DNA of 63,891 bases, filler included, from Chrysochromulina tobinii (Eukaryota), in NCBI GenBank assembly GCA_001275005.1. It is 8 parts of 8 records of this genome, joined end to end, with 100 filler letters (N's around TTAATTAATTAA, not from the genome) between each part and the next. Parts side by side here need not be neighbours in the genome. Positions count along the whole stretch, not along the records: positions 1 to 20,497 come from JWZX01000780.1; 7 more parts are not named here. One strand, written 5' to 3'. The notes below the pieces were generated by a model. That model saw only the letters and a program-made list of their open reading frames with translations, searched no databases and was not told the origin of the DNA. Shown piece by piece: positions 1,700 to 43,400 of this stretch. Position numbers and translations under genes: made by a program. Positions within the stretch are counted from its first letter, which is position 1; each line of letters opens with the position of its first letter.

Positions 1700-3329
1700 T
1701 CACCCCCCTTTCTCCCTGGGCGTGGTGCTGGCCCACACCTTCCCATACGGTGTGAGCTGCTGCACTTGCTCGGCGGTGAGGTAGCGCCCGTCGACGAGGG
1801 CCTTCGCCGGGTCACTCGCCACTAGATGTACCTTACCCATGGACTGACGGTCAATCAGTTTCGTCAGTACGTGATCGACGACCCAAGCTCCAATCGCGGG
1901 CGCTCCCATCACAAGGCACGCGCCGAGCAGCTGCGGATAGTGCGCCTTGCTCACTCTGGCCACCTCCGTCCAAAACGGGATCGCGCTGAAAAAGCGTAAC
2001 GGCTCAAACTCGCGCACTTCGTAAACCGCCAAGTGGCCGCGCGACGGGCAAGCTGAGCTGTCGACCTCCTGAACCACGACCTCCATCCATCGCAGGTAGC
2101 GCCTCACGATGTCGCGCTGCGAGACGCCTGTGGGGAAGGATGGGCGCCGTGGTGAGCACTTGCATGCAGGGCAGGATCCATCTTAGGTTCGATGTCGCGC
2201 TGCGACACGCCCTTGGCCAGCAGCTTGGGCACATCCAGCGCGCGAAGGTCGTAGAAGATCACCGGGCGGCCCTCGAGGTCGTGACAAAGGACTTGCATCG
2301 CATGTGGACCCATCGCGTGCTCCAGCGCCGCCTCGGCCGTTGGATCTGCCAGCTTGAGCGCGCCCGGGCGGAGGAGCTCATGGATCCCCTCTTCTTCGCG
2401 CCAGCGCGACGATGCCGCAAAGGCTACCGCGGCCTTGGCCACGTCGCCCTGGTGCTCTTTCAGATAGCGCGCGCCGCTGTGGGCGGAGGGCGGCTGGGCG
2501 CCGAGCTGGGCGCATGCCCCGCAGAGCTTTTCGAGGCTCTGCTCCTCTGGGGTCCTCGGGCTATCCTCGGGCGCCGTGTCCGGCGTCGTCACGAACCAGC
2601 TCGCATTCCTCCAGAGCCCGCCCGACTCCCCGCTGACCCCCTTGAAGCGCAAAGCATTGCGCGCGGCGGGCGCGAGCTCGTTCTCAACGTACCACCGGAT
2701 GCTGGGCCGCGCGAGCCCGATCCCGCCCGCGTCGACCTCCGTGTACACGCCGCCCTCCACCCTGTAGAGCACCCAGTTGCACAGGACGAGGCTCGCCACA
2801 TACTCGCGCGCCTTGCCCTCGTCCGTGTGCGTCGACGGCTCGAAGTTGTGGATGCCGTTCTCGGTGACGACGACGTAGCTCTCGGGCACAGGTGGGCTCA
2901 GGATTCGGAAGAGCTGGTCGAGCACGCCACGAAGCAGCGCCAGCTGGGTACGGCCCTCTGTCGCCTCCTTTGTGGCGAGCTCGTCTCAACACTACCTACC
3001 CGGATGCTCGGGCCGTCGCCGAGCCCGATCCCGCCCGCGTCGATCTCCGTGTACACGCCGCCCTCCACCCTGTAGAGCACCCAGTTGCAGCGGAGCCTGG
3101 CCACAAAGCCGCGCGCCTCGCCCTCGTCCGAGAGCTCCGACAGACCGGTCCCACGAGCGACATGCTCATGGGTCACAAAATTGTGGATGCCTTTCTCGGT
3201 GATGATGACGTAGCGCTGGTGCGGGCCGCCTCCGCCAAAGAGGCTCTTGAATAGATCCGGCACTAGCGAGACCGCTGGAACCGTGAAAGAGGCGTTCGGG
3301 ATGGATGGCATCTGGTCGAGAACCGTCAT
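1700..3329 (-). CDS. CRAL-TRIO/Sec14-like lipid-binding protein with two tandem N-terminal domains; one intron (2128-2210) and an apparent frameshift at ~2985-3000
   Basis: ARYLKEHQGDVAKA..WREEEGI (CRAL-TRIO N), DLEGRPVIFY, HYPQLLG..MGAP (C-terminal); duplicated domain CNWVLYRVEGGVYTE[IV]DAGGIGL; splicing the GC-AG intron joins ORFs 2104-2925 and 1700-2107 in frame. Confidence 0.75.
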
Positions 3330-5220: not shown

Positions 5221-8200
5221 ATGCTGCTGCGCGCGACCAGCACCCGCTCGGAGGATGTAACCCGGCCGCCGCTGGCGCAGCGCTATCGATCTTCACCTCT
5301 CGCCTCGCCAGAGATGCCCACGGGCATCACCAACATCATCTCCAACGAGGCTGCCGAGCGCTTCTCCTTTTACGGCATGAAGTGCATCCTCGTCGTGTTC
5401 ATGACCTCGCATCTTCGCGACGCGCAGAGGCAGCCGGCCTATCTGAGCGAGAAGGTCGCACTCGTCTACTACCACTCATTCACCAGTGCCGTGTACCTGA
5501 CCCCGCTCGGCGGAGCGCTGCTAGCCGAGGCGGTGCTCGGCAAGTACCGCACGGTCGTGTACCTGTCGCTCGTGTACTGCGGAGGGCACCTCGCTCTCGC
5601 AATCGACGAGACGCGCACCGGTGATGGCCGCTGGGCGCACACGTAGTTGATTGCGTCCGATGGCCACGGATGGCCGCTGATTGCGTCGCGATTGGCGCTG
5701 AGAGCCGCTGATTGCGTCTGATTGCCGCTGAGGGCGCCCTCGCTCGAGCAGGCCTCTTCGTCGGCCTCGCCCTCGTCGCCCTCGGCTCCGGCGGCATCAA
5801 GCCGTGCGTCAGCGCCGTGTTGGGCGACCAGTTCGGCGAACTCAACCAGCACTTGGTGAGCGTCGCCTTGATTGCACTTGATTGTGTACTGGTTTGCTCT
5901 GGATTACAGTGGATTGGTGAGCTCGGCCTTGGTTGAACATGGTTGCTCTCGATTGCACTTGATTGCCTCAGGTGAGCACGGCCTTTGGGTACTTCTATCT
6001 GGCCATCAATCTGGGCGCCTTCACCTCGACGTTACTCACACCCTACCTTCTCGAGCACGCGGGCTCGCATGCGGCCTTTGGCGTGCCAGGTGGTTGCACT
6101 TGATTGCACTCGTTTGCACTTGAGTGTACTTGACGTGGTAGTGCTCACCACGGCGCCCTCGCCCACACACAGGCATCGCCATGGCTCTCGCAACGCTCGC
6201 CTTCTGGAGCGGCCGTCACAAGTACAGACCTCTGATGACCTCTGATGACCTCTGATGGCATGCTGATTGCCATACCGCCGCCGTAGGTACACGCACGTGC
6301 CCCCGAATGCGAGCCGCTTCCTGATGACCTCTGATGACCTCCCTCATCAGGTACACGCACGTGCCCCCGAATGCGAGCCGCTTCCTGCGCAGCACTTGTA
6401 GCCCCGAGGGTGCCCGCGCGCTGTGCAAGCTGATCGGCTTGTTTGGCTTCTTCGCGGTGTATTGGAGCTTGTATGACCAAAGTGGCTCGGCGTGGGTGCT
6501 GCAGGTGAGCGTCTCGGATGGCCCCTGATGGCCTCTGATGGCCTCCCTCATCGCATGCATGTGAGCGGCTCGGAGTGCTTCTGATGGCCTCTGATGGCCT
6601 CTGATGGCCTCTGATGGCCTCCGATGGCCTCTGATGGCTTCTGATGGCCTCTGATGGCCTCTGATGATCACTGATGGCCTCTACTGGCAGGCAGAGAAGT
6701 TGGACAGAAGGTTCCTGGGTGTGGAATGGCTCCCCTCCCAAATCGGGGCGATCAATCCTCTCTTGATCCTCACACTCGTACCGCTCCTGCACGGCGCCGA
6801 CTTTGGCACCCCTCTCGGCGCCGTGTCGGGCGTGGGGCGCTCGGCGTTCTTCGCACGGCTCGGGCTCGTACCACGACGGCGCGTGCGGCTGGTAGGGCTC
6901 TACGAGCTCGTCGCCCGACACGGCGTTCGCGTTACGCCGCTGCGTAAGATCGGCTGCGGGCTCGTGCTCTGCGCGTGCTCGTTCCTGATCCCGCTGCAGG
7001 TGGAGGTTTGGATGGAGGCGAGCGGGTACAATCATAGCGCTGCAGCTCTGGCCGAGTGCAACGGCGCTGTTGGCGACGGCGGCGGCGGCGGTGCGCGTGG
7101 CTGTGGGCTCAGGCCCAGCATCGCATGGCAGGTGGTTGCCTTTGATCACGTGCCCACTGATTGCCCTTGATGAATACTGCTCAGTGAGGCCGAGCATCGC
7201 GCGGCAGCTCCTCGCTGATCTCGTGCCCCCTGATTGCCCTTGATGAATACTGCTCAGTGAGGCCGAGCATCGCGCGGCAGCTCCTCGCTGATCTCGTGCT
7301 CACGCTCGTTGATCTCGTCTCGATCTCGTCTGATCTCGTCTCGATCTCGTCTCGGTTTCGTCTGATCTCGTCTCGATCTCGTCTTGGTTTCGTCTGATCT
7401 CGTCTCGATCTCGTCTCGGTTTCGTCAGCTCGTCGCCTATTTCGTGCTCACTCTTTCGGAGGTGCTCGTCTCCGTCACTGGCCTCGAGTTCAGCTACACG
7501 CAGGCGCCACCGGCCATGAAGAGCATGGTGATGGCATTCTACCTCAGCGCGGTCGCCGCAGGCAATCTGGTCACCGTGGCCATCAATGCGAGCATCCTCA
7601 ACGCTGACGGCTCGAGCAGGTGAGTGCCGCTGCTTGCCGCTGATGGACTACGATGGCTTCTGATTGCTTCTGATAGCATCTCGAGTTCATCCCTGACTGC
7701 ATCTCTGATTGCCTCTGATGTGGCAGTTGGAGTGAGGTCGAGTACTATCGGTTCTTCACACTGATTGCTTCTGATTGCTTCTGATTGCTTCTGATTGCCT
7801 CCGATGTGGCAGTTGGAGTGAGGTCGAGTACTATCGGTTCTTTACACTGATTGCTTCTGATTGCCTCTGATGTGGCAGTTGGAGTGAGGTCGAGTACTAT
7901 CGGTTCTTTACACTGATTGCTTCTGATTGCTTCTGATTGCTTCTGATTGCCTCTGATGTGGCAGTTGGAGTGAGGTCGAGTACTATCGGTTCTTTACACT
8001 GATTGCTTCTGATTTACTTCTGATTGCTTCTGATTGCCTCTGATGTGGCAGTTGGAGTGAGGTCGAGTACTATCGGTTCTTTACACTGATTTCTTCTGAT
8101 TGCTTCTGATTGCCTCTGATGTGGCAGTTGGAGTGAGGTCGAGTACTATCGGTTCTTCACACTGATTGCTTCTGATTGCTTATGATTGCTTCTGATTGCT

Positions 8201-8560
8201 TCTGATTGCCTCTGATGTGGCAGTTGGAGTGAGGTCGAGTACTATCGGTTCTTCACGCTGCTCATGTTCGTCACCGCCGCCGCCTTCGTGCCGTACGCCG
8301 CGTGCTACAAGGAGAAGAGATACTTTCAAGGCCATGGGATGGACGAGATAGAGACGAGATCGGACGAGATGGAGACGAGAACAGACGAGATAGAGACGAG
8401 ATTTCAAGGCCATGGGACGGACGCGGACGCGGACGGTCCCGAGGCGGGGGCGGGGCCGCAGCCGACGTGGCGATCGTCGCAGCCGCTGCTGCCCGATGAG
8501 GTCAAGCTCGCGACGACTCGACCACGAGACGCTATAGTCGCTCGACACGAGACGCTTTAG
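5221..8560 (+). CDS. POT/PTR family proton-dependent oligopeptide transporter (multi-exon; start may be 5083)
   Basis: [12 protein letters not shown] (ExxERF), [41 protein letters not shown] motifs; introns ~5621-5751, 5856-5971, 6090-6172, 6222-6350, 6505-6690, 7132-7428, 7620-8223. Confidence 0.92.
7715..8260 (+). repeat. Seven copies of acceptor + exon start (GATGTGGCAG|TTGGAGTGAGGTCGAGTACTATCGGTTCTTYAC) separated by variable numbers of CTGATTGCTT decamers
   Basis: Direct reading; only the last copy (exon from 8224) continues into the ORF. Confidence 0.95.
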
Positions 8561-11291: not shown

Positions 11292-13880
11292 ATGCGGACG
11301 CATATGCTTCTAGCTCTGCTCACATTGCGTGCCGCCTCGGGCTTCTACCTGCCTGGCGTGGCGCCTCGCGAGTACCTGGATGGAGAGAAGGTCGAGGTTA
11401 AGGTCAACAAGCTCACATCTACCGTCACGCAGGTGCGCTCTGCCCACGGCCAGCGCCTTCGCCATGGCCGGCGCTCTGGCCTGCTATCGACGCGTACGCC
11501 TGCACCCGCCCTGAACAGCTGCCGTACGACTACTATAAGCTTGCCTTTTGCAAGCCCAAGGAGCTCATCAACGCGGTCGAGAACCTCGGCGAGGTCCTTC
11601 ACGGCTCGGTGATCCAGAACTCGCCGTATCAGCTCTTTGCGCAGAAGCAAGACTTCAAGGTGCTCTGCAAACAGGATCTGGACGCGAAGCAGGTGGCCGA
11701 GTTTGGGAAGCGGATTGGCGAGGAGTACCGCGTGCAGCTCATCATGGACAACCTGCCCGCGGCCACGCGCATGATCTCCGAGCTGCCCAATGGAAAGACG
11801 GTCTACATGTACGACCGTGGCTACAGGTTGGGCTTCATGGGAGCCAAGGAGTTTCCTGGCACGATCCCAAAGACGCCGTACCTGAACAACCACCTGCGCT
11901 TCATCATCAAGTACCACAAGGACGCCAAGTTCGAAGGCGCGCGCCTCGTCGGCTTCGAGGTCGAGGCCTTCTCCGTGAAGCACACCTACAAAGGCAAGTG
12001 GGGCGTGGACGCGAGCCTCACCTCGGTGCCTCTGTCGCCGGACCTGCCACCCCAGCCGATCGTGGAGGCGGGCGAGTACATCTTCACGTACGACGTGCAG
12101 TGGGAGGAGTCACCTATCCGGTGCGACTCGCGATGATCGCGCCTAGACCTCCCCACATGGGTGATTGCCTCTCTCATTCTCTCATTGCATGCTGATTGCG
12201 TGGGGTAGGAGTCACTCGTCCGGTGCGCCTGATTGCCTCTTCTCATTGCATGCTGATTGCGTCGGATTGCGCTGCATGCAGGTGGGCTTCGCGCTGGGAC
12301 CTCTACCTCTACATGGGTGACGACCAGATCCACTGGTTTTCGATCCTCAACTCGCTCGCCATCGTGCTGCTGCTCACGGGTACGCGCTTCGGCTCGGATG
12401 GCCTCTGATGGCCTCAGATAGGTTCTGAGTGGCTCTGAGTGGCTCTGAGTGGCTCTGAGTGGCTCTGAGTGGCTCTGAGTGGCTCTGAGTGGCTCTGAGT
12501 GCGTTTCCATTTTCCGCCCTCATCAGGCATCGTGGCGATGATCATGATGCGCACGCTGCGGCGCGACCTCAACCGTTACAACTCGGTCGAGGAGAAGGAG
12601 GAGTTGGCAGACGAGAGTGGCTGGAAGCTCGTACATGGCGATGTGCTGCGCCCGCCGCCGCTGCCCCTGCTTCTCTCGTCGTCGGTGGGGACTGGCATGC
12701 AATTGCTCTTTATGGCCATCATCTCGATCTTCTGCGCGATGCTCGGTTTCCTCTCTCCCGCCAACCGCGGCGGCCTTCTCACTGCGACGCTGCTGCTCTT
12801 CGTGTTGATGGGCGTGCCTGCGGGCTACTACGGCTCGCTCCTCTACAAGTCCATCAAGGGCTCGCAGTGGAAGTCGTTGACCGCTTCGACCGCCCTCCTG
12901 TACCCAGGCGTCATCTTCCTCCTCTTCTTCTGCCTCAACCTCTTCATATGGGGCTGCGGCTCGTCTGCCGCTGTGCCCTTCACCACCATGCTTGCCCTGA
13001 TCTGCATGTGGTTCTGCATCTCCGTCCCCCTCGTCTTTCTCGGCGCGTTCTTCGGCTTCCAGACGACCCTGCCCGAGCCGCCGGTGCGCACACGATCGAG
13101 ATCGCACGCCAAGGACTGCCGCATGCAAGTGCTCACCACGGCGCCATCTCTTCCCCACAGGTGCGCACGAACGAGATCGCACGCCATGTACCGCTGCAGG
13201 CGTGGTACATGGGGTTGCCGTGCACGATGGCGGTGGGCGGCATCTTGCCGTTCGGCGCCGTGTTCATTGAGCTCTTCTTCATCATGAGCTCTGTCTGGCT
13301 GCAGCGCTTCTACTACGTCTTCGGCTTCCTCGCGCTTGTGATCTTCATCCTGCTGCTCACGTGCGCCGAGATCTCGATAGTCCTCTGCTACTTCCAGCTC
13401 TGCAACGAGGATTATCACTGGTGGTGGCGCTCCTTCCTAAACTCGGGCGCGGCAGGCGGCTACTTGCTTGGCTACTCCGCCATCTACTTCCATACACAGC
13501 TTGACATGGTCGGTTTCACACCGACGCTCCTCTACTTTGGGTGTGAACGCCCCCCGTGTGCTGTGGAAGATTGCCTTTGGGTCTCCCCCGCGTGCCTCTC
13601 TGATAGCCCCGATCACCTCCCTCCTCAGGCACACGTTGATTGCCACTGATTACCACTGATTGCCACTGATTGCCACTGAGTGCCACTGATTGCACCCCTC
13701 CTCAGGCACATGTTGATTGCCACTGATTCCACTGATTGCCACTGATTGCCACGGATTGCACCCCTCCTCAGGTACATGTTGATCGCCGCCATCATCTTCG
13801 CGCTGATGACGGGTACAGTTGGTTTCATGGCCGCGTGGTGGTTCGTGTGGAAGATCTTCTCGGCCGTTAAGGTCGACTAG
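11292..13880 (+). CDS. TM9SF: Transmembrane 9 superfamily (EMP70/nonaspanin) protein
   Basis: Signal peptide then [61 protein letters not shown]-terminal KVD; introns 11433-11518, 12122-12282, 12380-12526, 13084-13160, 13541-13771. Confidence 0.95.
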
Positions 13881-15195
13881 GACCGACACGAGCCCAAGCA
13901 GAGGCAGCTCTCTCGATTAGGAAACCGGAGGCCCTCTCCCGCTCGCAATAGCCTCGCCTAGCGCCGTGAGGCCTTGCGTGGAGCGTGCATGCAAGTGCTC
14001 ACCCCGGCGCCTCTCCTAGCGCCGTGAGGCCTTGCGTGGAGCGTCCCGCGGGGCGCTGTCTGTGTTGCGGTGTCGCGGCTTGCATCTCGGAGATCGCACC
14101 TCGGAGATCGCATCTCGTGTGCCCCAATCGTCGGAGATCGCATCTCGTGCGCCCCAGTCGAGCCGCCGTCGTGTATCACACCGCGGCGCCTGCAACGTAC
14201 TCACTGTGCTCTCACACAGCGACGCTCACCCCCACGCCCCACAGTGCCTCGCCGTCGACCGGGCGCGCGACGCACTGACCACGCTGTGTCCTACTAATGC
14301 TGACACTGCGCACCACTCGGCGGGCGTGTCGGCTGTCGCGACGGTGTCGCGCCGGTGTTCGGTGGAATACGATCCGATCGCAACGTCCCCGGGCGCTCGC
14401 GGAGACGCGTGGGGCACGGGCGGGAGCCGGTCCGCGACTACTTAGTTCGTCATCATAGTATTAGACTCTTGACGATGTGACCACATAACCTCGAGGGCGC
14501 GGGCGAGGTGCTGGGGACAGACAGACGAGAGTGAGTGTCCGGTCTTAGATGAAACAGAGACGGCGGAAACGGAGCGTCGGAGCCCCAGCCCGGGCCGAGC
14601 CCGAGGCACAGACCGCCTCCGGATGGCGCTCGGCGGGCCGGACCCGCGGCGCTCGCCGGATAGCCGTTATGATTACTAAGCGACACCGTCTCCGCAGCGG
14701 TCTGACACTGTGCGCTCCTATGACACGCCGCACGAGGTCGAGGACCGGACAACGTTTCAAACAAGCATGTTTCAAGCATGTGGGTGACTGAGTGCGCGTG
14801 CCCGCGCAACCGGAACCGCTCTCCTGCTTCCATTATGGCTGTTCCTGCTACGCCACTTCAAGCACGATTGTACCATTGTACGATTGTAGTTTGTACGAAC
14901 GGGCGCAGAGCGTACTCCGAAGTTCCACGTTCCACCGTCGGTGCGGAGTATATGGACTTTGGATGGACCGTGTGGCAGTTGCGCGCCGTCGTGGACAGCC
15001 GGACACGGCGATCCGCCGGCGCGCCGACCCGAGCGCGCGCCGTCGTGGACAGCCGGACACGGCGATCCGCCGGCGCGCCTCGACCCGAGCGCGGTCTACC
15101 CTCGGCCCTCTAGAGATGAGGTGTCGCACTTCAGTGCCTCTGTGCTCCGCAGAGTGATGCATGGCGTGCCATAGGATTGTCGACGTGCCCGCGCT

Positions 15196-15933
15196 CTAGT
15201 CCCGTCCATCCGTGCCAAAGTAGCGGTCGCCAAAATCGCCCAACCCCGGCACGATGTAACTTTTGCTGTTGAGAATTGGGTCGATGGCCCCAGTGACGAT
15301 CTTGACCTGCGGGTACTTGTTGTGTATGGCGGCAATGCCCTCGCGCACGCACACGATGTTCACAAAGATGATATTTTCTGGGCGCACCCCTTTTTCAACC
15401 AAGCACTCGATAGCCTTGACCGCTGAGCCTCCCGTCGCGAGCATCGGGTCGAGGAGCAGCACCTGGCGCATGGCGACATCCGGCGGCAGCTTGGAGTACA
15501 TGAGCGTCGGCAGCGCAGTCTCCTCGTCGCGCTGGATGAGGATCTTGCCCACGGCCACAGATGGCATCATCACTCGCACCTCGCCCAGCATGCAGTCGGC
15601 CGCACGTAGGATGGAGACCGCACACAGGGACGACTCGGCGGGCAGGCGCATGCCCTCGTACGGGCCGCATGGCGTTTCGACGAGGACGGCCTTCGACGGT
15701 AGCAACGCCATCGCCTCTTCGATGAGCAGGTGCGTGAGCCTATTCGAGGCAATCACAAACTGTGAGCGCGGCGCCGTCTTGTCACGCATGAGCGTCTGCA
15801 GCGAGCGCGTGAGCGGTGTGTCCTTGAGCACCGTGACGTGGTGAAGGTTTTCGCACATGGAGCTGGCCGACGCGAAGGCGCCCGCGGCCGTCGCCGCGGC
15901 ACCGCCCGCTGCAAGCATCAGCCGACGCTTCAT
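15196..15933 (-). CDS. UPRT: Uracil phosphoribosyltransferase
   Basis: VSILRAA, GKILIQRDEET, LLLDPMLATGGS (PRPP site), YIVPGLGDFGDRYFGT. Confidence 0.95.
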   Translation of the reverse strand: MKRRLMLAAGGAAATAAGAFASASSMCENLHHVTVLKDTPLTRSLQTLMRDKTAPRSQFVIASNRLTHLLIEEAMALLPSKAVLVETPCGPYEGMRLPAESSLCAVSILRAADCMLGEVRVMMPSVAVGKILIQRDEETALPTLMYSKLPPDVAMRQVLLLDPMLATGGSAVKAIECLVEKGVRPENIIFVNIVCVREGIAAIHNKYPQVKIVTGAIDPILNSKSYIVPGLGDFGDRYFGTDGRD

Positions 15934-16080
15934 GGCCGTCGGGCCCCGAACTTCGCGAGTTTGGTCATTGGTTGGTCTTGAGTGGAGAGTGGAAGCCCAC
16001 CCCGTCCCGTCCCTAGGTCTCCATGTTCTGTACATGAGCTACGAAATTGGACAACTGTTCCCCGCCGTATCGGGCGGCGC

Positions 16081-17461: not shown

Positions 17462-20400
17462 ATGTCGGGCTCGCATCTCAGCCGCGACTTCTTCGAGCTT
17501 ATGTGCGCGCACACCCCAGCTCCGGCCAGTGCACGGCCAGGCACTCAACGCGAGGCGATGAAGTAACGGGACGCACAGACAGCGGGTGCGCTCACGCGCA
17601 CCAATGGGAGTGTCCTCACGCGCGCGCCATCGCCTGCTGCTATGTGCGCAGCAAGAGCATCGGCGAGTGCAAGTCGAAGCAGGAAGAGGATAAGATCTTG
17701 GCCTCGGAGGTGTCCACGCTCAAGCAAATCTTCACCACGCAGCTCACTGATAAGAAGTTGAAGGAGGCGCTCATGCGGGTCATGTATGCAGAGATGCTCG
17801 GCCACCACGCCGATTTCGGCCACATCCACGCGGTGAACATGACGCAAAAGACGAATCTCGTCTCCAAGCGCGTTGGCTACATGGCGAGTGCTGCCTGCCT
17901 CCACCCGGGCCATGAGCTGGTCACGCTCGCCGTCAACACCATGCGACGCGACGTCGCGTCGTCGAACCACGTCGAGGTGTGCGCGGCGCTGATCGCGATC
18001 CCGAAGCTGGTGAGCAAGGAGTTCCTCCCCGCGCTGCTCCAGCCGGTCCTCGCCCTCCTCGACCATGCCATGGAGGCCATTCGTAAGAAGGCCGTGATGG
18101 TGCTGCACAAGTTCTACACCATTGAGCCCGAGAGTATGGCGAGTCACACGGATAAGCTGCGGCGCGCGCTGTGCGACAAGGACCCGGCGGTGATGGGCGC
18201 GGCGCTGTACATCTTGCATGCGATGGCCGAGCAGACTCCCGCGCATCACAAGGACCTTGTGCCCTCGTACGTTTCGATCCTCAAGCAGATCACCGAGCAT
18301 CGGCTGCCCTCCACGTTTGATTACCATCGCGTGCCAGCTCCATGGATCCAGATCAAGCTGCTCAAGCTGCTGGCCCTGTTGGGCACGAACGACCAACGCG
18401 CGAGCGAGGGCATGTACGAGGTGCTCAATGACGTGATGCGCCGCGCCGACACGGGCATCAACATCGGATACGCGGTCATCTACGACTGCGTGCGCACGGT
18501 CACAACGATCTATCCGAATATCCCACTGCTCGAGGCGGCGGCGGGCCACATCGCCCGCTTCGTCCAATCGGAGAACCACAATCTCAAGTATCTCGGGATC
18601 AAGGCGCTCGCCCAGATTGTGCAGGTACGGACGAACCCACGCCCTAATCCAAATTAGGCAGGCCATGCGCCCGAGCTGCCCGGCCTGCAGCACGTGCTCA
18701 ACACGGCGCGCACCATCGCCTCTCTCGCCTCTCTCTCTCCTCTCCCCACAGGTCAACCAAAAGTACGCGCTCGACCACCAGATGGTCGTCGTCGAGTGCC
18801 TCGAGGACCCTGACGAAACTCTCAAGCGGAAGACCCTCGACCTGCTCTTCGCGATGACGAACGCGTCCAACATCATCTTCGTGGCCGACACACTCCTCGG
18901 CCACCTGCGCTCGACAACGGACCAAACCTTCCGAGGCGGCCTCGTCGACCGCATCACGCAACTCGCCGAGCGGTCAGCGCAACTCCCTACAGCGCACTGC
19001 CGAGCAACTCCCCACAGCGCACTCCCGAGCGGCGCCCACCATGCGAGCGCTCACCACGGCGCCCGGCTCTCCGCGCCTCGGCCCGCTCTCAAGCGTGCGA
19101 GCGCTCATCACGGCGCGCATTCCTCCCCTGCCCCCCTCCCCTGCCCCCCAGGTACGCGCCCGACAACACGTGGTACATTCGGACCATGAACGCGGTCTTC
19201 GAGCTCGGCGGCGAGTTAGTCCGGCCCGACATCGCCCACAACTTGATGCGCCTGATCGCCGAGGGCTCCGGCGAGGATGAGGCCGCTGACATGGCCATGC
19301 GCAAGTACGCGGCGTCGCAGTACTATGAGCTGCTCGAGAAGCCAGTGCTGCCCGACAACCTCGTGCAGGTGCTCTGCTGGGTGCTGGGTGAATATGGTTA
19401 CCTGGTCGACGGCACCCAGGTCCTCGACATAGCGACGCGCTTGTGCGGCGTCATCAAGCGCCAGTTGACGCACGTCTCGACCCGCAATTGGGTCTTGGGC
19501 GCGCTCGTGAAGCTCGTCGCCCAGCTTGGCCAGGCCCCTTCCCAGGTGACCGAGCTCGCCCAAAAGTACTCTCGGTCCGCGGACGTGACTCTCGCAAAGT
19601 ACGCGAACGAGCTGCTCGTATTCAGGGAGCACATGGACGTGATGAAGGCGGTGCTGCCCGTGGACGCGTCGTGTGAGGACCTCGAGACCGATCGCTCGCT
19701 TTCCTTCCTCAACGGCTATGTGCAGGTGACGAAGCCCTGATGGCCTCTCTTGATTGCCTCTGATTGCAGGTGACGAGACCCTGCTGGCCTCTCTTGATTG
19801 CCTCTGATAGATTGCAGGTGACGAGACCCTGCTGGCCTCTCTTGATTGCCTGCTTCCCCCTTCTTCTCAGTCTCTCCCCTTGTTTGGCTCACGATCACTG
19901 ATGACCACTGATGACCACTGATGACCACTGATGATCACTGATTGCTTCCCTCATCAGTCTCTCCCCCTTGTTTGGCTCACAGGCTGCCGTCGCCAACGGC
20001 GCCCAGCCCTACCTCAAGCGCGGTCAGCGCCCGGCAGACCTCGAGGCTGCGGCAAAGCGGGCCGCGGAGATCGCCGCCAAGCAGCCGGCCCAGCCGACGA
20101 TGCGCTTCGAGGAGTATGAGCGAGCACAGCTGCCCGTGATGTCGGCGCCACCAGCGGCGCCGGAGCCATCGGCGCCTGCCGTCGAAGAGACGCCACCACC
20201 CCTCTCGAGCGGCCTCAACACCTCAGGCGTCAAGCAAATGTGGGGCGCCGAGGGCTTCATGGGCGACAAGCCCGCGCCCGCGCCCACCCCCGCACAGGTC
20301 TTCACACCGGCTGGGGCCCCTCCGGCGGGGGGGTACCCCGGGAGCGCGCCGCAGGCCCCCCCTCGCCCCGCCGCGCCACCGGAGAAGAGTGCCGAACAGA

Positions 20401-20497: not shown

Positions 20498-20597
20498 NNN
20501 NNNNNNNNNNNNNNNNNNNNNNNNNNNNNNNNNNNNNNNNNTTAATTAATTAANNNNNNNNNNNNNNNNNNNNNNNNNNNNNNNNNNNNNNNNNNNN
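20498..20597. other. Artificial contig linker (N44-TTAATTAATTAA-N44); identical linkers at 26021-26120, 34181-34280, 38294-38393, 40335-40434, 50245-50344, 62664-62763
   Basis: Six-frame-stop linker embedded in Ns, 100 nt each. Confidence 0.98.
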
Positions 20598-23500
20598 GTT
20601 CCGCAGCGCCCCCGCCGCGTTCTCCTTTTGGCCATCCGTGCCGCTCTGCACCAGCGTCACGAGCGGCGCGATCGCGCCAGCCTGCGCGATCAAGACCTGG
20701 TTCTCGGCATTTTTGAACGCGAGGTTCCGCAGCGCCCCCGCCGCGTGCTCCTTTTGGCCAGCCGTGCCGCTCTGCACCAGTGTCACGAGCGGCGCGATCG
20801 CGCCAGCCTGCGCGATCAAGACCTTGTTCTCATCGTTGCCCGCGAGGTTCCCCAGCGTCCCCGCCGCCTGCTCCTTTTGGCCATCCGTGCCGCTCTGCAC
20901 CAGCGTCACGAGCGGCGCGATGGCGCCAGCCTGCACAATCAAGACTTCATTCTCGGCGTTGATCGCGAGGTTCGCCAGCGCATCCGCCGCGTACTCCTTT
21001 TGGCCATCCGTGCCGCTCTGCACCAGCGTCACGAGCGGCGCGATCGCGCCAGCCTGCACAATCAAGACTTCGTTCTCATCGTTGCACGCGAGGTTCCGCA
21101 GCGCATCCGCCGCGTACTCCTTTTGGCCAGCCGTGCCGCTCTGCACCAGCGTCACGAGCGGCGCGATCGCGCCAGCCTGCGCGATCAAGACCTGATTCTC
21201 ATCGTTGCACGCGAGGATCGCCAGCGCACCCGCCGCATACTCCTTTTGGCCAGCCGTGCCGCTCTGCACCAGCGTCACGAGCGGCGCGATGGCGCCTGCC
21301 TGCGCGATCAAGACCTGGTTCTCGGCGTTGTTGGCCGCGAGGTTCCACAGCGCATCCGCCGCGTACTCCTTTTGGCCAGCCGTGCCGCTCTGCACCAGCG
21401 TCACGAGCGGCGAGATCGCGCCAGCCTGCGCGATCAAGACCTGGTTCTCATCGTTGCCCGCGAGGCTCGCCAGCGCACCCGCCGCGTGCTCCTTTTGGCC
21501 AGCCGTGCCGCTCTGCACCAGTGTCACGAGCGGCGCGATCGCGCCAGCCTGCGCGATCAAGACCTTGTTCTCGGTGTTGTTGGCCGCGAAGTTCCACAGC
21601 GCCCCCGCCGCCTGCTCCTTTTGGCCAGCCGTGCCGCTCTGCAACAACGTCACAAGCGGCGCAGTCGCGCCAGCGTGCGCAATCAAGACCTGGTTCTCGG
21701 CGTTGATCGCGAGGTTCCGCAGCGCCGCCGCTGCCTGCTCCTTTTGGCCATCCGTGCCGCTCTGCACCAGCGTCACGAGCGGCGCGATCGCGCCAGCCTG
21801 CGCGATCAAGACCTGGTACTCGGCGTTGGCCGCGAGGTTCCACAGCGCCCCCGCCGCCCGCTCCTTTTGGCCAGCCGTGCCGCTCTGCACCAGCGTCACG
21901 AGCGGCGCGATCGCGCCAGCCTGCGCGATCAAGACCTTGTTCTCGGCGATCATCGCGAGCCTCCGCAGCGCCCCCGCCGCCTGCTCCTTTTGGCCATCCG
22001 TGCCGCTCTGCACCAGCGTCACGAGCGGCGAGATCGCGCCAGCCTGCGCGATCAAGACCTTGTTCTCGGCATTGGCCGCGAGGTTCCAGAGCGTTGCCGC
22101 CGCCAGCTCCTTTTGGCCATCCGTGCCGCTCTGCACCAGTGTCGCGAGCGGCGCGATCGCGCCAGCCTGCGCGATCAAGACCTTGTTCTCGGCGATCATC
22201 GCGAGCCTCCGCAGCGCCCCCGCCGCCTGTTCCTTTTGGCCATCCGTGCCGCTCTGCACCAGCGTCACGAGGGGCGAGATCGCGCCCGCCCGCGCGATCA
22301 AGACCTGGTACTCGGCGTTGATCGCGAGGTTCGCCAGCGCCCCCGCCGCGTACTCCTTTTGGCCATCCGTGCCGCTCTGCACCAGCGTCACGAGCAGCGC
22401 GATCGCGCCAGCCTGCGCGATCGAGACCTGGTTCTCGGCGTTGAGCGCGAGGTTCCCCAGCGCCCCCGCCGCCTGCTCCTTTTGGCCGGCCGTGCCGCTC
22501 TGCAACAACGTCACAAGCGGCGCAATCGCGCCAGCCTGCGCGATCACGACCTTGTTCTCGGCGTTCATCGCGAGCCTCCGCAGCGCCTTCGCCGCCTGTT
22601 CCTTCTGGCCATCCGTGCCGCTCTGCACCAGCGTCACAAGCGGCGCGATCGCGCCTGCCTGCGCGATCAAGACCTGGTTCTCAACATAGGCCGCGAGGTT
22701 CCCCAGCGTTGCCGCCGCCTGCTCCTTTTGGCCATCCGTGCCGCTCTGCACCAGCGTCACGAGGGGCGCGATCGCGCCAGCCTGCGCGATCAAGACCTTA
22801 TTCTCGGCGTTGACCGCGAGGTTCCACAGCGTCCCCGCCGCGTTCTCCTTTTGGACACCCGTGCCGCTCTGCACCAGCGTCACGAGGGGCGAGATGGCGC
22901 CAGCCTGCGCGATCAAGACCTTGTTCTCGGCGTTTGTCGCGAGGTTCCGCAGCGCCCCCGCCGCCTGCTCCTTTTGGCCATCCGTGCCGCTCTGCACCAG
23001 CGTCACAAGCGGCGCGATCGCGCCAGCCTGCACAATCAAGACCTTGTTCTCGGCGTTTGTTGCGAGGCTCCGCAGCGCACGCGCCGCCTCCGCCCCGGCC
23101 GCTGGGTCTTGGGCCGTGAGCATCGCCACGAGCGGCACGATTCCGCCCGCCCTCGCAATCGCCACCCGCGACTCATTGTCGCGCATGTCAGCCAGCGCTC
23201 CGGCCGCATCGGCGCTGCTGTTGCGCACCTGCTGGACCAGCCGCTGCAGCCGCTCGTCCTTCGAGAGCGCCGGCGCATCTGCGCCCGTGCCCACGCCCGC
23301 ACCACCACGCGATGGCATCGTTGGCATCTCTGGCCAAGTAGATCTTCCACCATCAATGGCCATCATTCGGCGTAAGTCGCGATCTCGCGCAATCTCCGCG
23401 GCATCTCGTGTGGTGTAAAAGAGCAGCGTATCCCGCATCTCCTCCACCTCGATCGTCTGGACAAACTGCGATGCGTGTCTGTCCTCAACCGCATGAGCTT

Positions 23501-25914
23501 CCGCGGCTGCTTCGCCCTGGTCGAAGCGAAACGAACGCACCCTCGGCGGCTCCAGACGAATAGCAACCATTTCGCCACGGATCCCGTGCGCGGGCAGCCC
23601 GCCAATGTCCGACGGGTACGCCGAGAACGCGCGCATCCCAAGACGGTTGATCGGCGACGTCTGATCCGCCCCATCAAAGTACACGTACAGATCCGGGTAC
23701 GTGGCACGCGCTGTGTAGGCTTTGAGCCCGAGGACACGTCGCCAGCCTCGGCTTGCCTGCAGGATGGCCATCTCCTGCACCTCTGTGGCCGCTGGGAAGG
23801 GCTCGGGAGCCACCGACACCGGGATCGCATCGCGAGCAGCCTCGAGTGGGCAAGGGCTAATCTGGAGGGCCTTCCCCCTTCTCGACGAGGCGGGAGGCGG
23901 CGTGGAAAGCACTTGCATGTTGGCGGGCTTGATCAAGATGGGGGCGCCGTCGCGCATGCCTGGCTTCTGCCGGTCGACCAGCTGCACCTCCCATCGCTCG
24001 ACACCGCCCGTCATATTCCGACGGTCCACAACGCCCATGCGCCCATTCAGCTCTGGCCGTGACGCGAGGCCGCACAGAGTGACACGCGCACCCACCCAAG
24101 GGGCGATGGCGCTGGCGGCATCCGCCTTTCGTGCCGAAGGCGGCCGGATGGCTGTTGTCGCCCCCTCCGCCTGTGCTGCGCTCTCAATGGGGATCCCTTG
24201 CGCAGCCGCGAGGCCATACAGCCGCCGCGCCTCAGCCTCGTTCTTTGGTCCGCCTAGTTCTTGCTCGTGCATGGCCCCAAGACTGTACTGTGCCTCAGCA
24301 AGCCCTTGCGCGGCCGCGAGGCCATACAGCCGCCGCGCCTCAACCTCGTCCTTTTGTCCGCCATGCCCTTGCTCGTACATGGCCCCAAGAATTTGCTGTG
24401 CATCAGCATGCCCCTGCGCGGCCGCGAGGCCAAACAGCCGCCGCGCCTCTAGCAAATCCTGCGGTCCGCCCTGCCCGTGCGCGTGCATGATGCCGAGGTT
24501 GCACTGCGCTTTAGCATTCCCCTGCGCAGCCGCGAGGCCATACAGCCGCCGCGCCTCCGGCAAGTCTTGCGGTCCGCCCTGCCCGTGCGTGTACATGATC
24601 GCGAGGTTGTGCTGCGCTTTAGCATGCCCCTGCGCGGCTGCGAGGCCAAACAGCCGCCGCGCCTCAACCTCGTCCTTGGTTCCGCCACGCCCTTCATCGT
24701 GCATGAGTCCGAGGTTGTACTGCGCGTCAGCATCCCCCTGTGCGGCCGCGAGGCCATACAGCCGCTGCGCCTCTGCCTCGTCCTTTGGTCCGCATCGCCC
24801 GTGCTCGTGCATGATTCCGAGGTTGAACTGCGCGTCAGCATGCCCTTGCGCAGCCGCGAGGCCATACAGCCGCCGCGCCTCTAGCAAGTCTTGCGGTCCG
24901 CCCTGCCCTTCGCGGTGCATGACCCCGAGGTTGTACTGCGCTTTAGCATCCCCCTGCGCAGCCGCGAGGCCATACAGCCGCCGCGCCTCTAGCAAATCCT
25001 GCGGTCCGCCTAGTCCTTGCTCGTGCATGATTCCGAGGTTTTGCTGTGCCTCAGCATGCCCTTGCGCAGCCGCGAGGCCATACAGCCGCCGCGCCTCTAG
25101 CAAATCCTGCGGTCCGCCCTGCCCGTGCGTGTACATGATCCCGAGGTTGTGCTGCGAATCAGGATCCCCCTGCATAGCTGCGAGGCCAAACAGCCGCCGC
25201 GCCTCAACCTCGTCCTTGGTTCCGCCACGCCCTTCATCGTGCATGAGTCCGAGGTTGAACTGCGCGTCAGCATTCCCCTGTGCAGCCGCGAGGCCATAAA
25301 GCCGCCGCGCCTCTGCCTCGTCCTTTGGTCCGCGTCGCCCGTGCTCGTGCATGATTCCGAGGTAATGCTGTGCCTCAGCAAGCCCTTGCGCAGCCGCAAG
25401 GCCATATAGCCGCCGCGCCTCAGCCTCCGTTCCTTTCGGTCCCGCCAATCCCTTTCTCGTGCATGATTCCGAGATTGTGCTGAGCCCCAGCATACCCTTG
25501 CGCAGCCGCAAGGCGAAACAGCCGCCGCGCCTCAACCTCGTCCTTTGGTCCGCCTAGCCCTTGCAGGAACATGACCCCGAGGTCGTACTGAGCCTCAGCA
25601 TACCCTTGCGCAGCCAAGGTGCGAAGCTGCTGCCGCTCCGCCTCCGCCTTGTCCCTTGGTATGCCACGTCCTTGCGAGTGCTTGGAGGCTCCATCAGAGG
25701 ATCGATCCGACGAAGGCGACGGTTTCGGTGCAGACATCGCTGGCGATGGCTTCGGCGCCATATGCAGCGACGTGGGCTGCACGGCGAGCATCTCGCCGTT
25801 CTCGCAGCGCACCTTCCACCGACCGCGGGATTCGACCCATTCCACCACGTCGGCAACGCGACCGTTGAGCTCGGGCCGAGCCACCAGTCCCTCCAGCACG
25901 ACGCGAGCACCCAC
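20598..25914 (-). CDS. Giant repeat protein: SH3-like domain, ~13 Sel1 repeats, second SH3-like domain, linker domain, >=21 armadillo repeats (3'-truncated; apparent frameshift at ~25425-25445)
   Basis: 36-aa AQxNLGxMxxxGxGGxxDxxEARRLYGLAAAQG units; 41-aa AGAIAPLVTLVQSGTDGQKEQAAGALxNLA units; GARVxLxGLxxRPELNG twice. Confidence 0.9.
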
Positions 25915-40434: not shown

Positions 40435-43400
40435 CCTTCGACATCGGGTCGTCGCGAGGCGCGAACGAGGCGCGCCATCCCTCGAAGCCAAGCGCGAGCT
40501 TGCGGTTGATCATCCGGCTCAGGCCCTTGCGCAGCTTGCGAAGGAACTCGGCGCGCTCGACGGCCATCTCGAGCCACGCGCCGAAGCCCCGAGACAAGCC
40601 GCGGTTGATCAGGTGGCTCAGGCTTCTGCGCATCGACTCGCGCTTCGCCTTCACCGCAGCCCACCGCGAGTGCCAGCCCACCCAGCCGCGGGCGAGCTCG
40701 CGGTTGAGGAAATAGAGGAGTGCCTTCGACATCGGGTCATCACGAGGTGCGAAGGCGGCGATCCACCGATCAAACCCGAACGCGAGCTTGCGGTTGATCA
40801 TCCGGCTCAGACCCTTGCGCAGCTTGCGAAGGAACTCGGCGCGCTCAGCCGCCATCTCGACCCATGCGCCCCAGCCGCGCGACTGGCCGCGATGCAGCAG
40901 GTGGCCCACACTCTTGCGCATCGACTCGCGCTTCGCCTTGAGCTCCGAAAACGCCATGTACCACGCCACCCAGCCTCGAGACAGCCCGCGGTTCATCAGA
41001 TGCAGCAGCGCCTTCGTCATGTGCCCCTGCTGCGACTCTCGCATCTGCTTATGCGCGATCGCGGACAGCCAGCCAGCAAACCCGAGCGCCACCTTCCGGT
41101 TGATCAAGAAGCCCAAGCCCTTGCGCAGCAGGCGCAAGAACTCAGCACGCTCGACGGCCATCTCGACCCACGCGCCCCAGCCTCGCGACAAGCCGCGATT
41201 GAGCATGTGGCCGAGACCGCGCTTCAGCGCTGCGCGCTTGCGAGCGCCTTCCTCCCATGTAGAGTGCCACGCGTTCCAGCCGAGCGCGAGCTTCCGGTTG
41301 ACGAAGTAGCTCAGAGCCTTCGACATCGGGTCGTCGCGAGGCGCGAACGAGGCGCGCCATCCCTCGAAGCCAAGCGCGAGCTTGCGGTTGATCATCCGGC
41401 TCAGACCCTTGCGCAGCTTGCGAAGGAACTCGGCGCGCTCGATGGCCATCTCGAGCCACGCGCCGAAGCCCCGAGACAGCTCGCGGTTGATCAGGTGGCT
41501 CAGGCTTCTGCGCATCGACTCGCGCTTCGCCTTCACCGCAGCCCACCGCGAGTGCCAGCCCACCCAGCCGCGGGCGAGCTCGCGGTTGAGGAAATAGAGG
41601 AGTGCCTTCGTCATTGGATTCGTTGTCCTCGGCGCGCGCAGCTCGAGCCACGTAGCGAACCCTTGCGCGAGCTTTCGGTTGATCAAGAAGCTCGCTCCTT
41701 TCCTGAGCAGGCGGATGGACTGAGCGCGCGTGACTGCGAACGTGAACCATGTTTCCCATCCTTGTGCTAATCTGCGATTGGCCAGACGTCCGATGGCGCC
41801 ACGTGTCTTCTCATGAAACTCGACTAGGCTCTGCCAGACGCTGAACCATCCATTCCAGCCCTTCGTGAGCCCACGACGGCGCTTATGGTTGACCGCACGA
41901 GAGAGCAGGGCTACTCGCGGATCTACAGCTTCCTTCGTGCGCCATTTCGTAAGCGCCATCGCCACCTTCCGGTGGATCAAGAAGCCCAGGCCCTTGCGCA
42001 GCAGGCGCAGGAACTCGGCGCGCTCGACGGCCATCTCGACCCATGCGCCGAAGCCGCGCGACAGGCCGCGGTTGAGCATGTGGCCCAGGCTCTTGCGCAT
42101 CGACTCACGCTTCACTTTCAGCTCCTCCCACGTCGCATACCACGCCGTCCAGCCGCGCGACAGCCCGCGGTTCATCAGGTGCCGCAGCGCCTTCGACATC
42201 GGGTCATCACGAGGTGCGAAGGCGGCGATCCACCGATCGAACCCGAGCGCGAGCTTGCGGTTGATCATCCGGCTCAGACCCTTGCGCAGCTTGCGCATGA
42301 GCTCCGCACGCTCAGCGGCCATCTCGGACCAAGCACCGAAGCATCGCGACAGGCCGCGATTGATCAGGTGGCTTAAGCTCTTACGCATCGAGTCGCGCTT
42401 CCCTTTAATCGCAGCCCACCGCGAGTGCCATGCTGTCCAGCCGTGCGAGAGATGACGGTGGACGAGGTGGCGAAGGGCACGGCTCATCGGATCTGCAGTG
42501 CGCGACTCGCGCAGCTGGGAGACAGCACTCCACGCGCCAAAGCCGATGACGAGCTTGCGGTTGACCATAAAGCCCATGCCCTTGCGCAGCAACCGGAGGA
42601 ACTCGGTGCGCTCAGCAGCCAGCTCGATCCATGCACCCCAGCCGAGCGAGAGCTTGCGGTTCTTTAGGTGTCCCAGAGCCTTGCTCATGGGCTCGAGCTT
42701 CGCCTTGCGCTCCACCACAAACCACTCCCACGCGGTCCACCCACGCGCGAGGCCGCGGTTGATGAGGTCGGTGAGGGCGCGACGGGCCACCCCGCGTGCT
42801 GCCTGCCGGTCGCCGCACAGCGCCCGCCAGCCCTGCCAGCCGAGTGCCAGCTTGCGGTGGATCATGTGCTTGAACACCTGCCTCATCTTCGTGCGGTGCG
42901 CGTCGCGCTTGCTACGGCGGGCGTCCCATGCGTTCCATGCAGCGACGAGCCCGCGCTTGCGGAAGGCACCCACTGCCTTCTTCATCAAGGCCACGCGGTC
43001 CTTGCCGCTGGCCAAGGCCGCGCGCCACTGCTGAAACGCCGCCTTTCGCAGGCTCGTGCGCTTGATCGTGAAGGCGCGGTTCAAGACGCGCAGCGAGTGC
43101 GTGCGCCACTTGCTGGACGCAGCCCAGTTTCGAAAGTCGCTCTTCTTGTCACGCTTCCCCGCCAGCTGGCGCGCGCGGCGCATCCTATCGCGCTGCTCGC
43201 GCTGCTCGACGGCGCGGACCTTCCACAGACGCAGCCGATCGAGGCGGCGGCGCCGATCGCGCCGCTGCCGGAAGCTCGCTGCCTTCTTGCTGAGCGAGCG
43301 GGCGTACGCGAGGTCACCCCACTGCTGGAACGCGCTGGCGCGAGCGCCGCTCACCCACTGCTCCGTCGCGGCGAGCGCCATGCGCCGCTCGCGCAGCTCG

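Follow-up and report, generated by a model that had tools for sequence, protein, structure and literature searches.

An intron core inserted in a 3' UTR of Chrysochromulina tobinii is apparently a truncated, unspliced member of a large, active intron-making family

Recent surveys, as represented by the accessible part of PMC12130899, attribute bursts of intron gain to transposons. The closest described systems are the introners of Symbiodinium, of Polarella glacialis (classes 4, 5, 6, 8 and 10) and of a marine Chrysochromulina sp. (Fig. 2C). In the available portions of the two reports concerned (10.1101/2020.10.14.339549, 10.1101/2022.06.06.494994), these elements form many similar short introns that are precisely removed, one splice site being borne by the element and the other supplied by the duplicated target. 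The C. tobinii family described here is alike in these respects. Introner target duplications measure 3-8 nt in the accessible text of the first report (10.1101/2020.10.14.339549), and the part available of a supplement to the second (PMC9860276) lists marine Chrysochromulina assemblies with introners.

C. tobinii itself is haploid with a 59-Mb genome, and the accessible text of PMC4580454 uses the word 'intron' once. In its available portion, PMC12130899 gives this species 0 introner families, and the cassette motif studied here had 0 matches in the accessible supplements of PMC12130899 and PMC9860276. Half of each intron in the C. tobinii family is locus-specific, and screens for end-to-end similarity would miss the family. 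The accessible part of PMC13685798 held nothing relevant, and no report on the family or on half-intron copying was found in a literature in which subscription papers and supplements were thinly covered. How new introns originate is an open question, and the burst in C. tobinii appears to be fed by the copying of parts of host introns.

The insert in the TM9SF 3' UTR

The window analysed is a 63,891-nt stretch of C. tobinii DNA, joined from eight parts of assembly GCA_001275005.1. It carries a TM9SF gene, of which the product of exon 12529-13092 is identical to a Chrysochromulina parva protein at 187 of 188 positions, which puts the host among the haptophytes of the C. parva/tobinii group. An earlier note on this DNA had described a 28-nt cassette between perfect 30-bp direct repeats behind this gene, and had taken it for the inserted unit with its target duplication, outside coding constraint. 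The features of the region are as follows.

11292..13880, plus strand: TM9SF (EMP70, PF02990) coding span with five introns (Pfam, protein comparison)
13881..14555, plus strand: TM9SF 3' UTR up to the limit of the RNA contigs (RNA contigs)
13951..13986, plus strand: first copy of the target duplicate, 36 nt, with the perfect 30-nt part at 13957-13986 (repeat comparison)
13987..14011, plus strand: inserted intron core, truncated (form C, see below), with a palindromic start, a putative branch motif CTCAC at 13998-14002 and the end GGCGCC (sequence)
14009..14044, plus strand: second copy of the target duplicate, with its sole mismatch (14014) inside the junction zone (repeat comparison)
13966..14019, plus strand: cryptic 54-nt GT...AG arising from the UTR event (sequence, RNA contigs)

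The 30-mers at 13957-13986 and 14015-14044 are identical and enclose a spacer of exactly 28 nt, as the earlier note had read them. The repeat grows 6 nt leftward to 36 nt with one mismatch (13951-13986 and 14009-14044; G13956 versus T14014), so that across 14009-14014 insert and duplication have no sharp border and the insert proper measures 22-28 nt. At its right end, GCC, or GCCTC-CC with one mismatch, is common to insert and target; the last 3 nt of the core thus match the target too, as a microhomology. A branch role of CTCAC is suggested by the motif and by its distance to the AG in intronic copies.

The site lies 77 nt after the TM9SF stop codon (13878-13880). The stretch 13771-14555 is spanned in two runs by RNA contigs, without a gap and letter for letter, which makes the copy part of a retained 3' UTR and bears out its placement outside coding sequence. 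A 3'-UTR intron, which had also been considered, was not found: among the joints listed for the RNA contigs of these two runs, which drop rare variants, none removes the cryptic GT...AG at 13966-14019. The site is also unchanged in contigs of two DNA runs. The repeat length is near the word length of assemblers, but single contigs from two DNA and two RNA runs span the site letter for letter, and an assembly artefact around the repeat is of negligible probability.

The cassette does recur in introns. Exact copies of its 17-nt motif stand at 13121 (+) and 2167 (-), each intronic; with up to 3 mismatches allowed, the window has six matches where 0.35 would be expected (none of 100 shuffles had as many); the family occupies more than 100 introns. 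In base-shuffled windows a 16-mer recurred within 130 nt in only 2 of 50, and the real window holds 68 exact repeats of at least 25 nt with a period of 35-130. By itself a 30-nt repeat is no rarity in this genome; what is enriched is its association with the cassette. Neither intron nor cassette folded better than shuffles (z 0.04 to 0.42), and the 94-nt whole gave z -2.0.

Further duplication-plus-filler events and a decayed CTCAC...CCCCACAG lie in and behind the TM9SF 3' UTR, at 14083-14260 and 14981-15079. An intron-free frame at 15129-15936 (-), convergent with TM9SF, is presumably, from its motifs, a putative uracil phosphoribosyltransferase. Long coding-type tandem repeats occupy 20586-23060, 24195-25650, 40471-42885 and 51176-52504; their periods of 123-126, 108, 99 and 33 nt suggest putative armadillo, Sel1-like, 33-residue and low-complexity repeats, respectively.

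Copies, flanking duplications and three forms of the family

A metagenome scan with a 25-nt pattern returned at least 134 stretches. The census rests on 132 metagenome loci (L002-L133), one viral-collection locus (L001) and the window, with strains mixed and loci chosen for the pattern. It comprises at least 339 cassette copies; merging left 281 distinct, similar copies at unrelated sites in 134 records (among the matches listed), of which 270 had sufficient flank. Array members and strain orthologues stayed in the sample, so the copies are not fully independent. The viral-collection contig carries a full core plus acceptor at its end (401-460), and may be a host fragment or an intron-bearing virus.

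Among the copies listed, a 24-nt core is conserved at 83-100% per column between unconserved flanks, and reaches from roughly -14 to +9 relative to the putative branch A. In 164 of the 270 listed copies it is followed by a pyrimidine linker and a CACAG-type end (CCCCACAG), with 149 different linkers among the 164. Only 16 of 273 listed copies have 10-mer repeats ahead of the core. At several unrelated loci (L008, L013, window 2167) the core is preceded by an extended upstream variant (CGAACC...GCCTT, about 25 nt), a donor sub-lineage. At the intronic copy 13143, contig depth summed to 114,567 in one run, where unique flanks had about 110-135, and to 40,335 in a second, where they had about 43; as a rough figure only, this puts the family at some 900-fold. 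The UTR insert is the branch-point core of this family of ~75-nt introns. It is less than 'the inserted unit' of the earlier note, having neither the pyrimidine tract nor the CCCCACAG of the 164 copies, and neither the ends nor the duplication length of the family are fixed; it is a truncated copy, likely a by-product, and not the element in full.

The proposed target duplication was upheld by the family. A flanking direct repeat (scored as present at 14 or more) accompanies 185 of the 270 listed copies and is undetectable in the other 85. The corresponding counts are 29 of 2645 for mispaired flanks and 262 of 2000 for random positions. This random-position rate is high (13%), and together with the 68 exact repeats of the window it indicates that the genome often duplicates short stretches. 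Among the listed copies the duplication spans 14-60 nt (median 29, 10th-90th percentile 20-44), and such variability leaves no fixed target-site duplication (TSD) length. In 130 of 185 cases the left breakpoint is no more than about 6 nt away from the start of the core, and unspliced copies (filtered at up to 12 nt) cluster there too. Random switching does not account for such clustering, which would suit a template whose end is defined; candidate causes are a protected fragment around the branch point or palindromes at the two ends of the core.

These properties bear on a classical introner, a MITE-like non-autonomous DNA transposon that carries the acceptor and takes its donor from the target-site duplication. 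The logic of splice-site recruitment is that of the Symbiodinium and Polarella classes 4-6 and others, the copy number is high and marine Chrysochromulina assemblies have introners, but the described families have fixed duplications of 3-8 nt, no terminal inverted repeats were found at the insert ends of the three window copies, and the 149 linkers, the 5'-truncated cores, the local donors and the mirror and core-only forms set out below are at odds with an element of defined ends. Given its variable ends this reading is largely refuted, and we hold it to be very improbable.

Three forms can be distinguished. In form A, the commonest, core and acceptor are copied and the donor GT comes from the duplicate of the next exon's start, the intron being a copy of that exon's first 22-50 nt followed by core, linker and acceptor (57-128 nt, median 76, in 109 listed cases). 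Among the matches listed, GT or GC follows core plus CCCCACAG in 136 of 143, and the exon start is duplicated upstream of them in 95 of 143 against 121 of 1500 controls. In acceptor-less copies the duplicate begins with GT or GC in only 5 of 24 (background 17%), and acceptor and GT start are therefore coupled. Form B is the mirror image: the donor half is copied and the AG comes from the duplicate of the previous exon's end. A CACTGATG...GCCTT motif precedes 21 listed copies, 12 of them with an element-borne donor; the upstream exon end is duplicated in 6 of these 12 against 6 of 540 mispaired, and exon ends are AG in 10 of 12. Form C consists of the core only and is unspliced; 24 listed acceptor-less copies have a clean duplicate (period 44-85), and the UTR copy at 13987..14011 is of this form. 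Near-complete introns with their own donor also occur. Sequence similarity thus does not reach both intron ends, the 5' 22-50 nt being target-derived in form A and the 3' end in form B.

Inserts are truncated at both sides: among the matches listed, 35 of 85 non-index acceptor copies begin within the core. Acceptor-less copies flush with the core end have 1-4 nt in common with the target in 7 of 7 cases outside one array, and at least 2 nt in 6 of 7 (chance 0.12), in small numbers. Mirror forms, variable duplications and two-sided truncation exclude an element with fixed ends. Selection for a minimum intron length was not seen in the lengths of intron parts (rho -0.14, p 0.20, n 81) or as a deficit below 66 nt (2 seen, 3.3 expected); a strong negative correlation between the parts was dropped as a boundary artefact. 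At L008, core-only copies at 6145 and 6081 (-) lie right after a stop codon contained in the 37-nt duplicate, a second 3' UTR case.

The window holds the following further copies and related introns, all read from the sequence.

13084..13160, plus strand: 77-nt form-A intron of TM9SF, with a decayed copy of the next exon's start (beginning GT), core, pyrimidines and CACAG
2128..2210, minus strand: 83-nt form-A intron with a GC donor from the duplicated exon start, splicing predicted
6141..6171, plus strand: 5'-truncated core with acceptor, intron end
18675..18751, plus strand: diverged core, long pyrimidine tract and CCCCACAG, intron end
19039..19151, plus strand: two diverged cores ahead of an acceptor
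6287..6350, plus strand: second intron-end family of the same build, with a duplicated exon start and a filler of 10-mer repeats plus CCCTCATCAG
13629..13771, plus strand: duplication plus filler stacked twice, as units of 77 and 66 nt, within the final TM9SF intron

Of 105 cases in the second intron-end family (CCCTCATCAG), 39 have this same architecture (median period 78), and the process thus does not depend on a single sequence. At 5620-8230, 12122-12527, 13543-13771 and 47080-47550, many introns consist of stacked exon-end duplicates and 10-mer repeats, each repeat with a branch-like CTGAT or CTAAT motif, and end in CCCTCATCAG or CCTCCTCAG; these are likely products of the same process with other donor lineages.

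Precise splicing of a form-A intron is documented by one RNA joint, which skips 71 nt, GT..AG (a single depth-4 contig, from one RNA run of three). For TM9SF intron 13084..13160, RNA contigs of two runs depart from the DNA at 13082 with 163 nt remaining and end at 13322, the DNA contig end, an arithmetic that points to splicing. Two relatives (P0007, P0016; protein sequences only) are unbroken through this position; their ends resemble intron read-through, and they are likely genomic calls. A third protein, P0005, reads through the intron, and gene callers will misread C. tobinii introns of this kind.

Donors, new positions and a proposed route of intron gain

Empty-site alleles, which the earlier note had suggested looking for, were found for another copy and not seen at the TM9SF UTR site itself. 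At L056, an 81-nt insertion has a perfect 33-nt duplication (34 nt with a shared G), of which L010 and L029 hold one copy; the filled site belongs to one strain and the empty one to two assemblies of another, and no contig crosses L056 590-749 or 830-869. The insertion stands within a frame of over 320 codons (~1 kb) that is open in both alleles and uninterrupted in L029; it keeps the reading frame and brings in no stop, and would therefore be tolerated even without splicing. Over 48 nt it is identical to an intron end ~0.5 kb downstream in the same gene, in the very intron with the 71-nt RNA joint, and the insert/donor junctions share 2 nt and 4 nt. A filled/empty pair like this would also arise if the repeats had recombined and the insert had been lost, and the polarity of the insertion is not proven. 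At L033, the first 7 nt of the insert at 7535 belong to the exon duplicated at its neighbour and follow 5 nt of microhomology (junctions 5 and 3 nt), which gives a direction.

It is quite unlikely, in our assessment, that these introns are an old family of whole introns onto which tandem duplication, slippage and gene conversion later pasted exon ends, with few new positions and the UTR copy as a stray conversion tract. Short tandem duplications abound in the window and at random positions, near-complete introns with their own donor exist, and arrays of unit plus duplicate differ between strains. Form-A introns, however, have nothing 5' of the duplicate, so that their donor site is target-derived, and two positions look new: the L056 insertion inside its open frame, against L010 and L029, and the TM9SF intron position, uninterrupted in P0007 and P0016. 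Strains also differ by 42-140 nt composed of a duplicate and filler in the comparisons of L028 with L063, L035 with L075 and L040 with L079, and array lengths change as well.

Copying from nearby sequence was seen in three independent locus groups. An upstream suffix of at least 8 nt is shared by 9 of 380 within-locus pairs against 12 of 35,544 between loci, a signal that comes from these three groups only, from non-independent pairs and with the L014-L100 and L013-L130 links left out. Upstream pairs at up to 3 edits number 6 of 209 within loci against 24 of 17,311 between, and shared variants 56 of 209 against 1195 of 8876, the latter count with L014-L100 and L013-L130 wrongly grouped. The density of copies around an index copy falls from 434 per Mb at 0.25-1 kb to 93 per Mb at 3-5 kb (27, 14, 12 and 11 copies in 62, 79, 71 and 118 kb by distance bin; 3 in 64 kb for the window). 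L014 and L100 carry identical inserts at separate loci; these and some other between-locus pairs look real, and there are thus distant donors as well. The UTR copy is not in the three groups: its nearest candidate donor, TM9SF intron 13084..13160, is one core substitution away and has no left microhomology. A single master template was set aside, being weakened by the 149 linkers in 164 copies and by the local donors.

As to the template, 41 of 53 acceptor-less clusters could be scored by a nearby intron signal, and 37 of the 41 lie on the gene's strand; at least one clear copy, L035 1228 (+), is antisense. Together these do not separate DNA from RNA templates. At L035 1228 (+) and L075 the antisense core ends a reading frame, giving its last codons and stop; the L035 peptide, which we take by eye to resemble the C-terminus of a family-A DNA polymerase, matched no Pfam family, as did the L056 frame.

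Some restriction-like-endonuclease LINEs leave long, variable target duplications. A LINE-type reverse transcriptase acting in trans, which would prime on a nick and copy intron RNA (excised, trimmed or spliceosome-protected), could produce such duplications here, together with the sharp left edge at the core start, the sharp AG end, a core of this extent around the putative branch A, the strand bias and the distant near-identical inserts. Yet excised intron RNA has no exon bases, and therefore cannot explain acceptors joined to GT-starting targets (136/143) or the AG ends of form B (10/12); nor does tolerance explain the acceptor-GT coupling, since most non-coding sites tolerate any start. 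The column profile of the copies has no poly-A or simple-repeat tail at one fixed end, and as to tRNA or Rfam heads, the window gave no Rfam match at gathering score, five loci gave sub-threshold matches only and ARAGORN found 0 tRNA in eight loci. The local donors, the decay of density with distance and the antisense copy also tell against a LINE, and same-gene donors would account for much of the strand bias. We therefore regard the LINE as unlikely.

Probably, part of an existing intron, near or distant, is copied through microhomology-guided template switching, with some 15-55 nt of the target duplicated in the process. At a break or stalled fork, the end of a strand would move to a donor intron, either DNA or unspliced pre-mRNA, often in the same gene and sometimes distant, and would copy a segment that includes the branch-point core before returning to the target upstream of its point of departure, whereby the target would be duplicated. 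A return via the donor's AG|GT junction would let the duplicate begin with GT and yield a precise intron (form A); an exit via the donor's exon|GT junction would let it end in AG (form B); and two switches that flank only the core would leave an unspliced product (form C), an event that would survive only in UTRs and introns. A template with exon-intron junctions, entered and left by short microhomology, explains the three forms, the local donors and the coupling. The clustered left breakpoints, the 85 copies with no detectable repeat and the small number of locus groups behind the local-donor signal tell against it. Each new intron would be a new donor, so that the family could spread without a transposase. 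The enzyme may be Pol theta-type end joining or break-induced replication, and the direction of events is as we infer it; the 24-nt core may correspond to the pre-mRNA stretch held by the spliceosome at the branch point, in which case nascent RNA would be the template.

The full proposition is put forward tentatively, at slightly less than even confidence: a transposase-free, self-propagating gain, active now, in which a half-intron is copied into an exon and microhomology at the splice junction makes the target duplication supply the missing splice site, with about a thousand introns made, more in the second family, and all invisible to introner screens. If the partial-copying reading is true, new introns arise here without a jumping gene, and screens that need end-to-end similarity undercount gains. 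Donor and recipient are still identifiable, at least one site is polymorphic and the host is a small, haploid, culturable alga, so that rate, template and enzyme are directly testable.

Comparison with known systems

From the introners of Symbiodinium, Polarella and marine Chrysochromulina, as far as the accessible reports describe them, the C. tobinii family differs in its duplication (14-60 nt and variable, versus 3-8 nt and fixed), in having no inverted repeats, in that half of each intron is locus-specific, and in that either half can be copied, often from a neighbouring intron. In the available material on introner fam24 of Emiliania huxleyi (PMC12130899, supplement file 8), a haptophyte family of about 70 nt is listed with 10-bp terminal direct repeats and the entry 'co-opt 5' carry 3''; that family has five copies and a class given as unknown, and is likened here by description, not by sequence.

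In tandem genomic duplication of AGGT exon sequence, as treated in the accessible part of PMC3443670, the duplicated exon likewise gives a splice site and leaves the coding unchanged, whereas here a family-forming foreign segment with branch point and second splice site stands between the copies. New introns with direct repeats that were read as repair of staggered breaks share the flanking repeats; those of C. tobinii are long, are present in about two thirds of the copies and enclose filler that stems from other introns. Existing introns are also the source in intron transposition and homologous introns of Oikopleura and Mycosphaerella (14 events, Table 1 in the available text of PMC3443670) and in fungal introner-like elements, but there whole introns moved with no long duplication, and in C. 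tobinii the copy is partial. Breaks with overhangs can give rise to small tandem duplications and to templated insertions (PMC8355091; Pol theta-mediated end joining). These resemble the present events in duplications of tens of bases, microhomology and local filler, although they concern mammalian cells with engineered nicks, and introns are not a product reported in the accessible text.

Thus, the C. tobinii family behaves as do introners that take one splice site from the duplicated target, yet lacks the structural marks of a transposon. It is best read as templated half-intron copying, which we consider the probable account, and there is a fair chance that this is a new route of intron gain.
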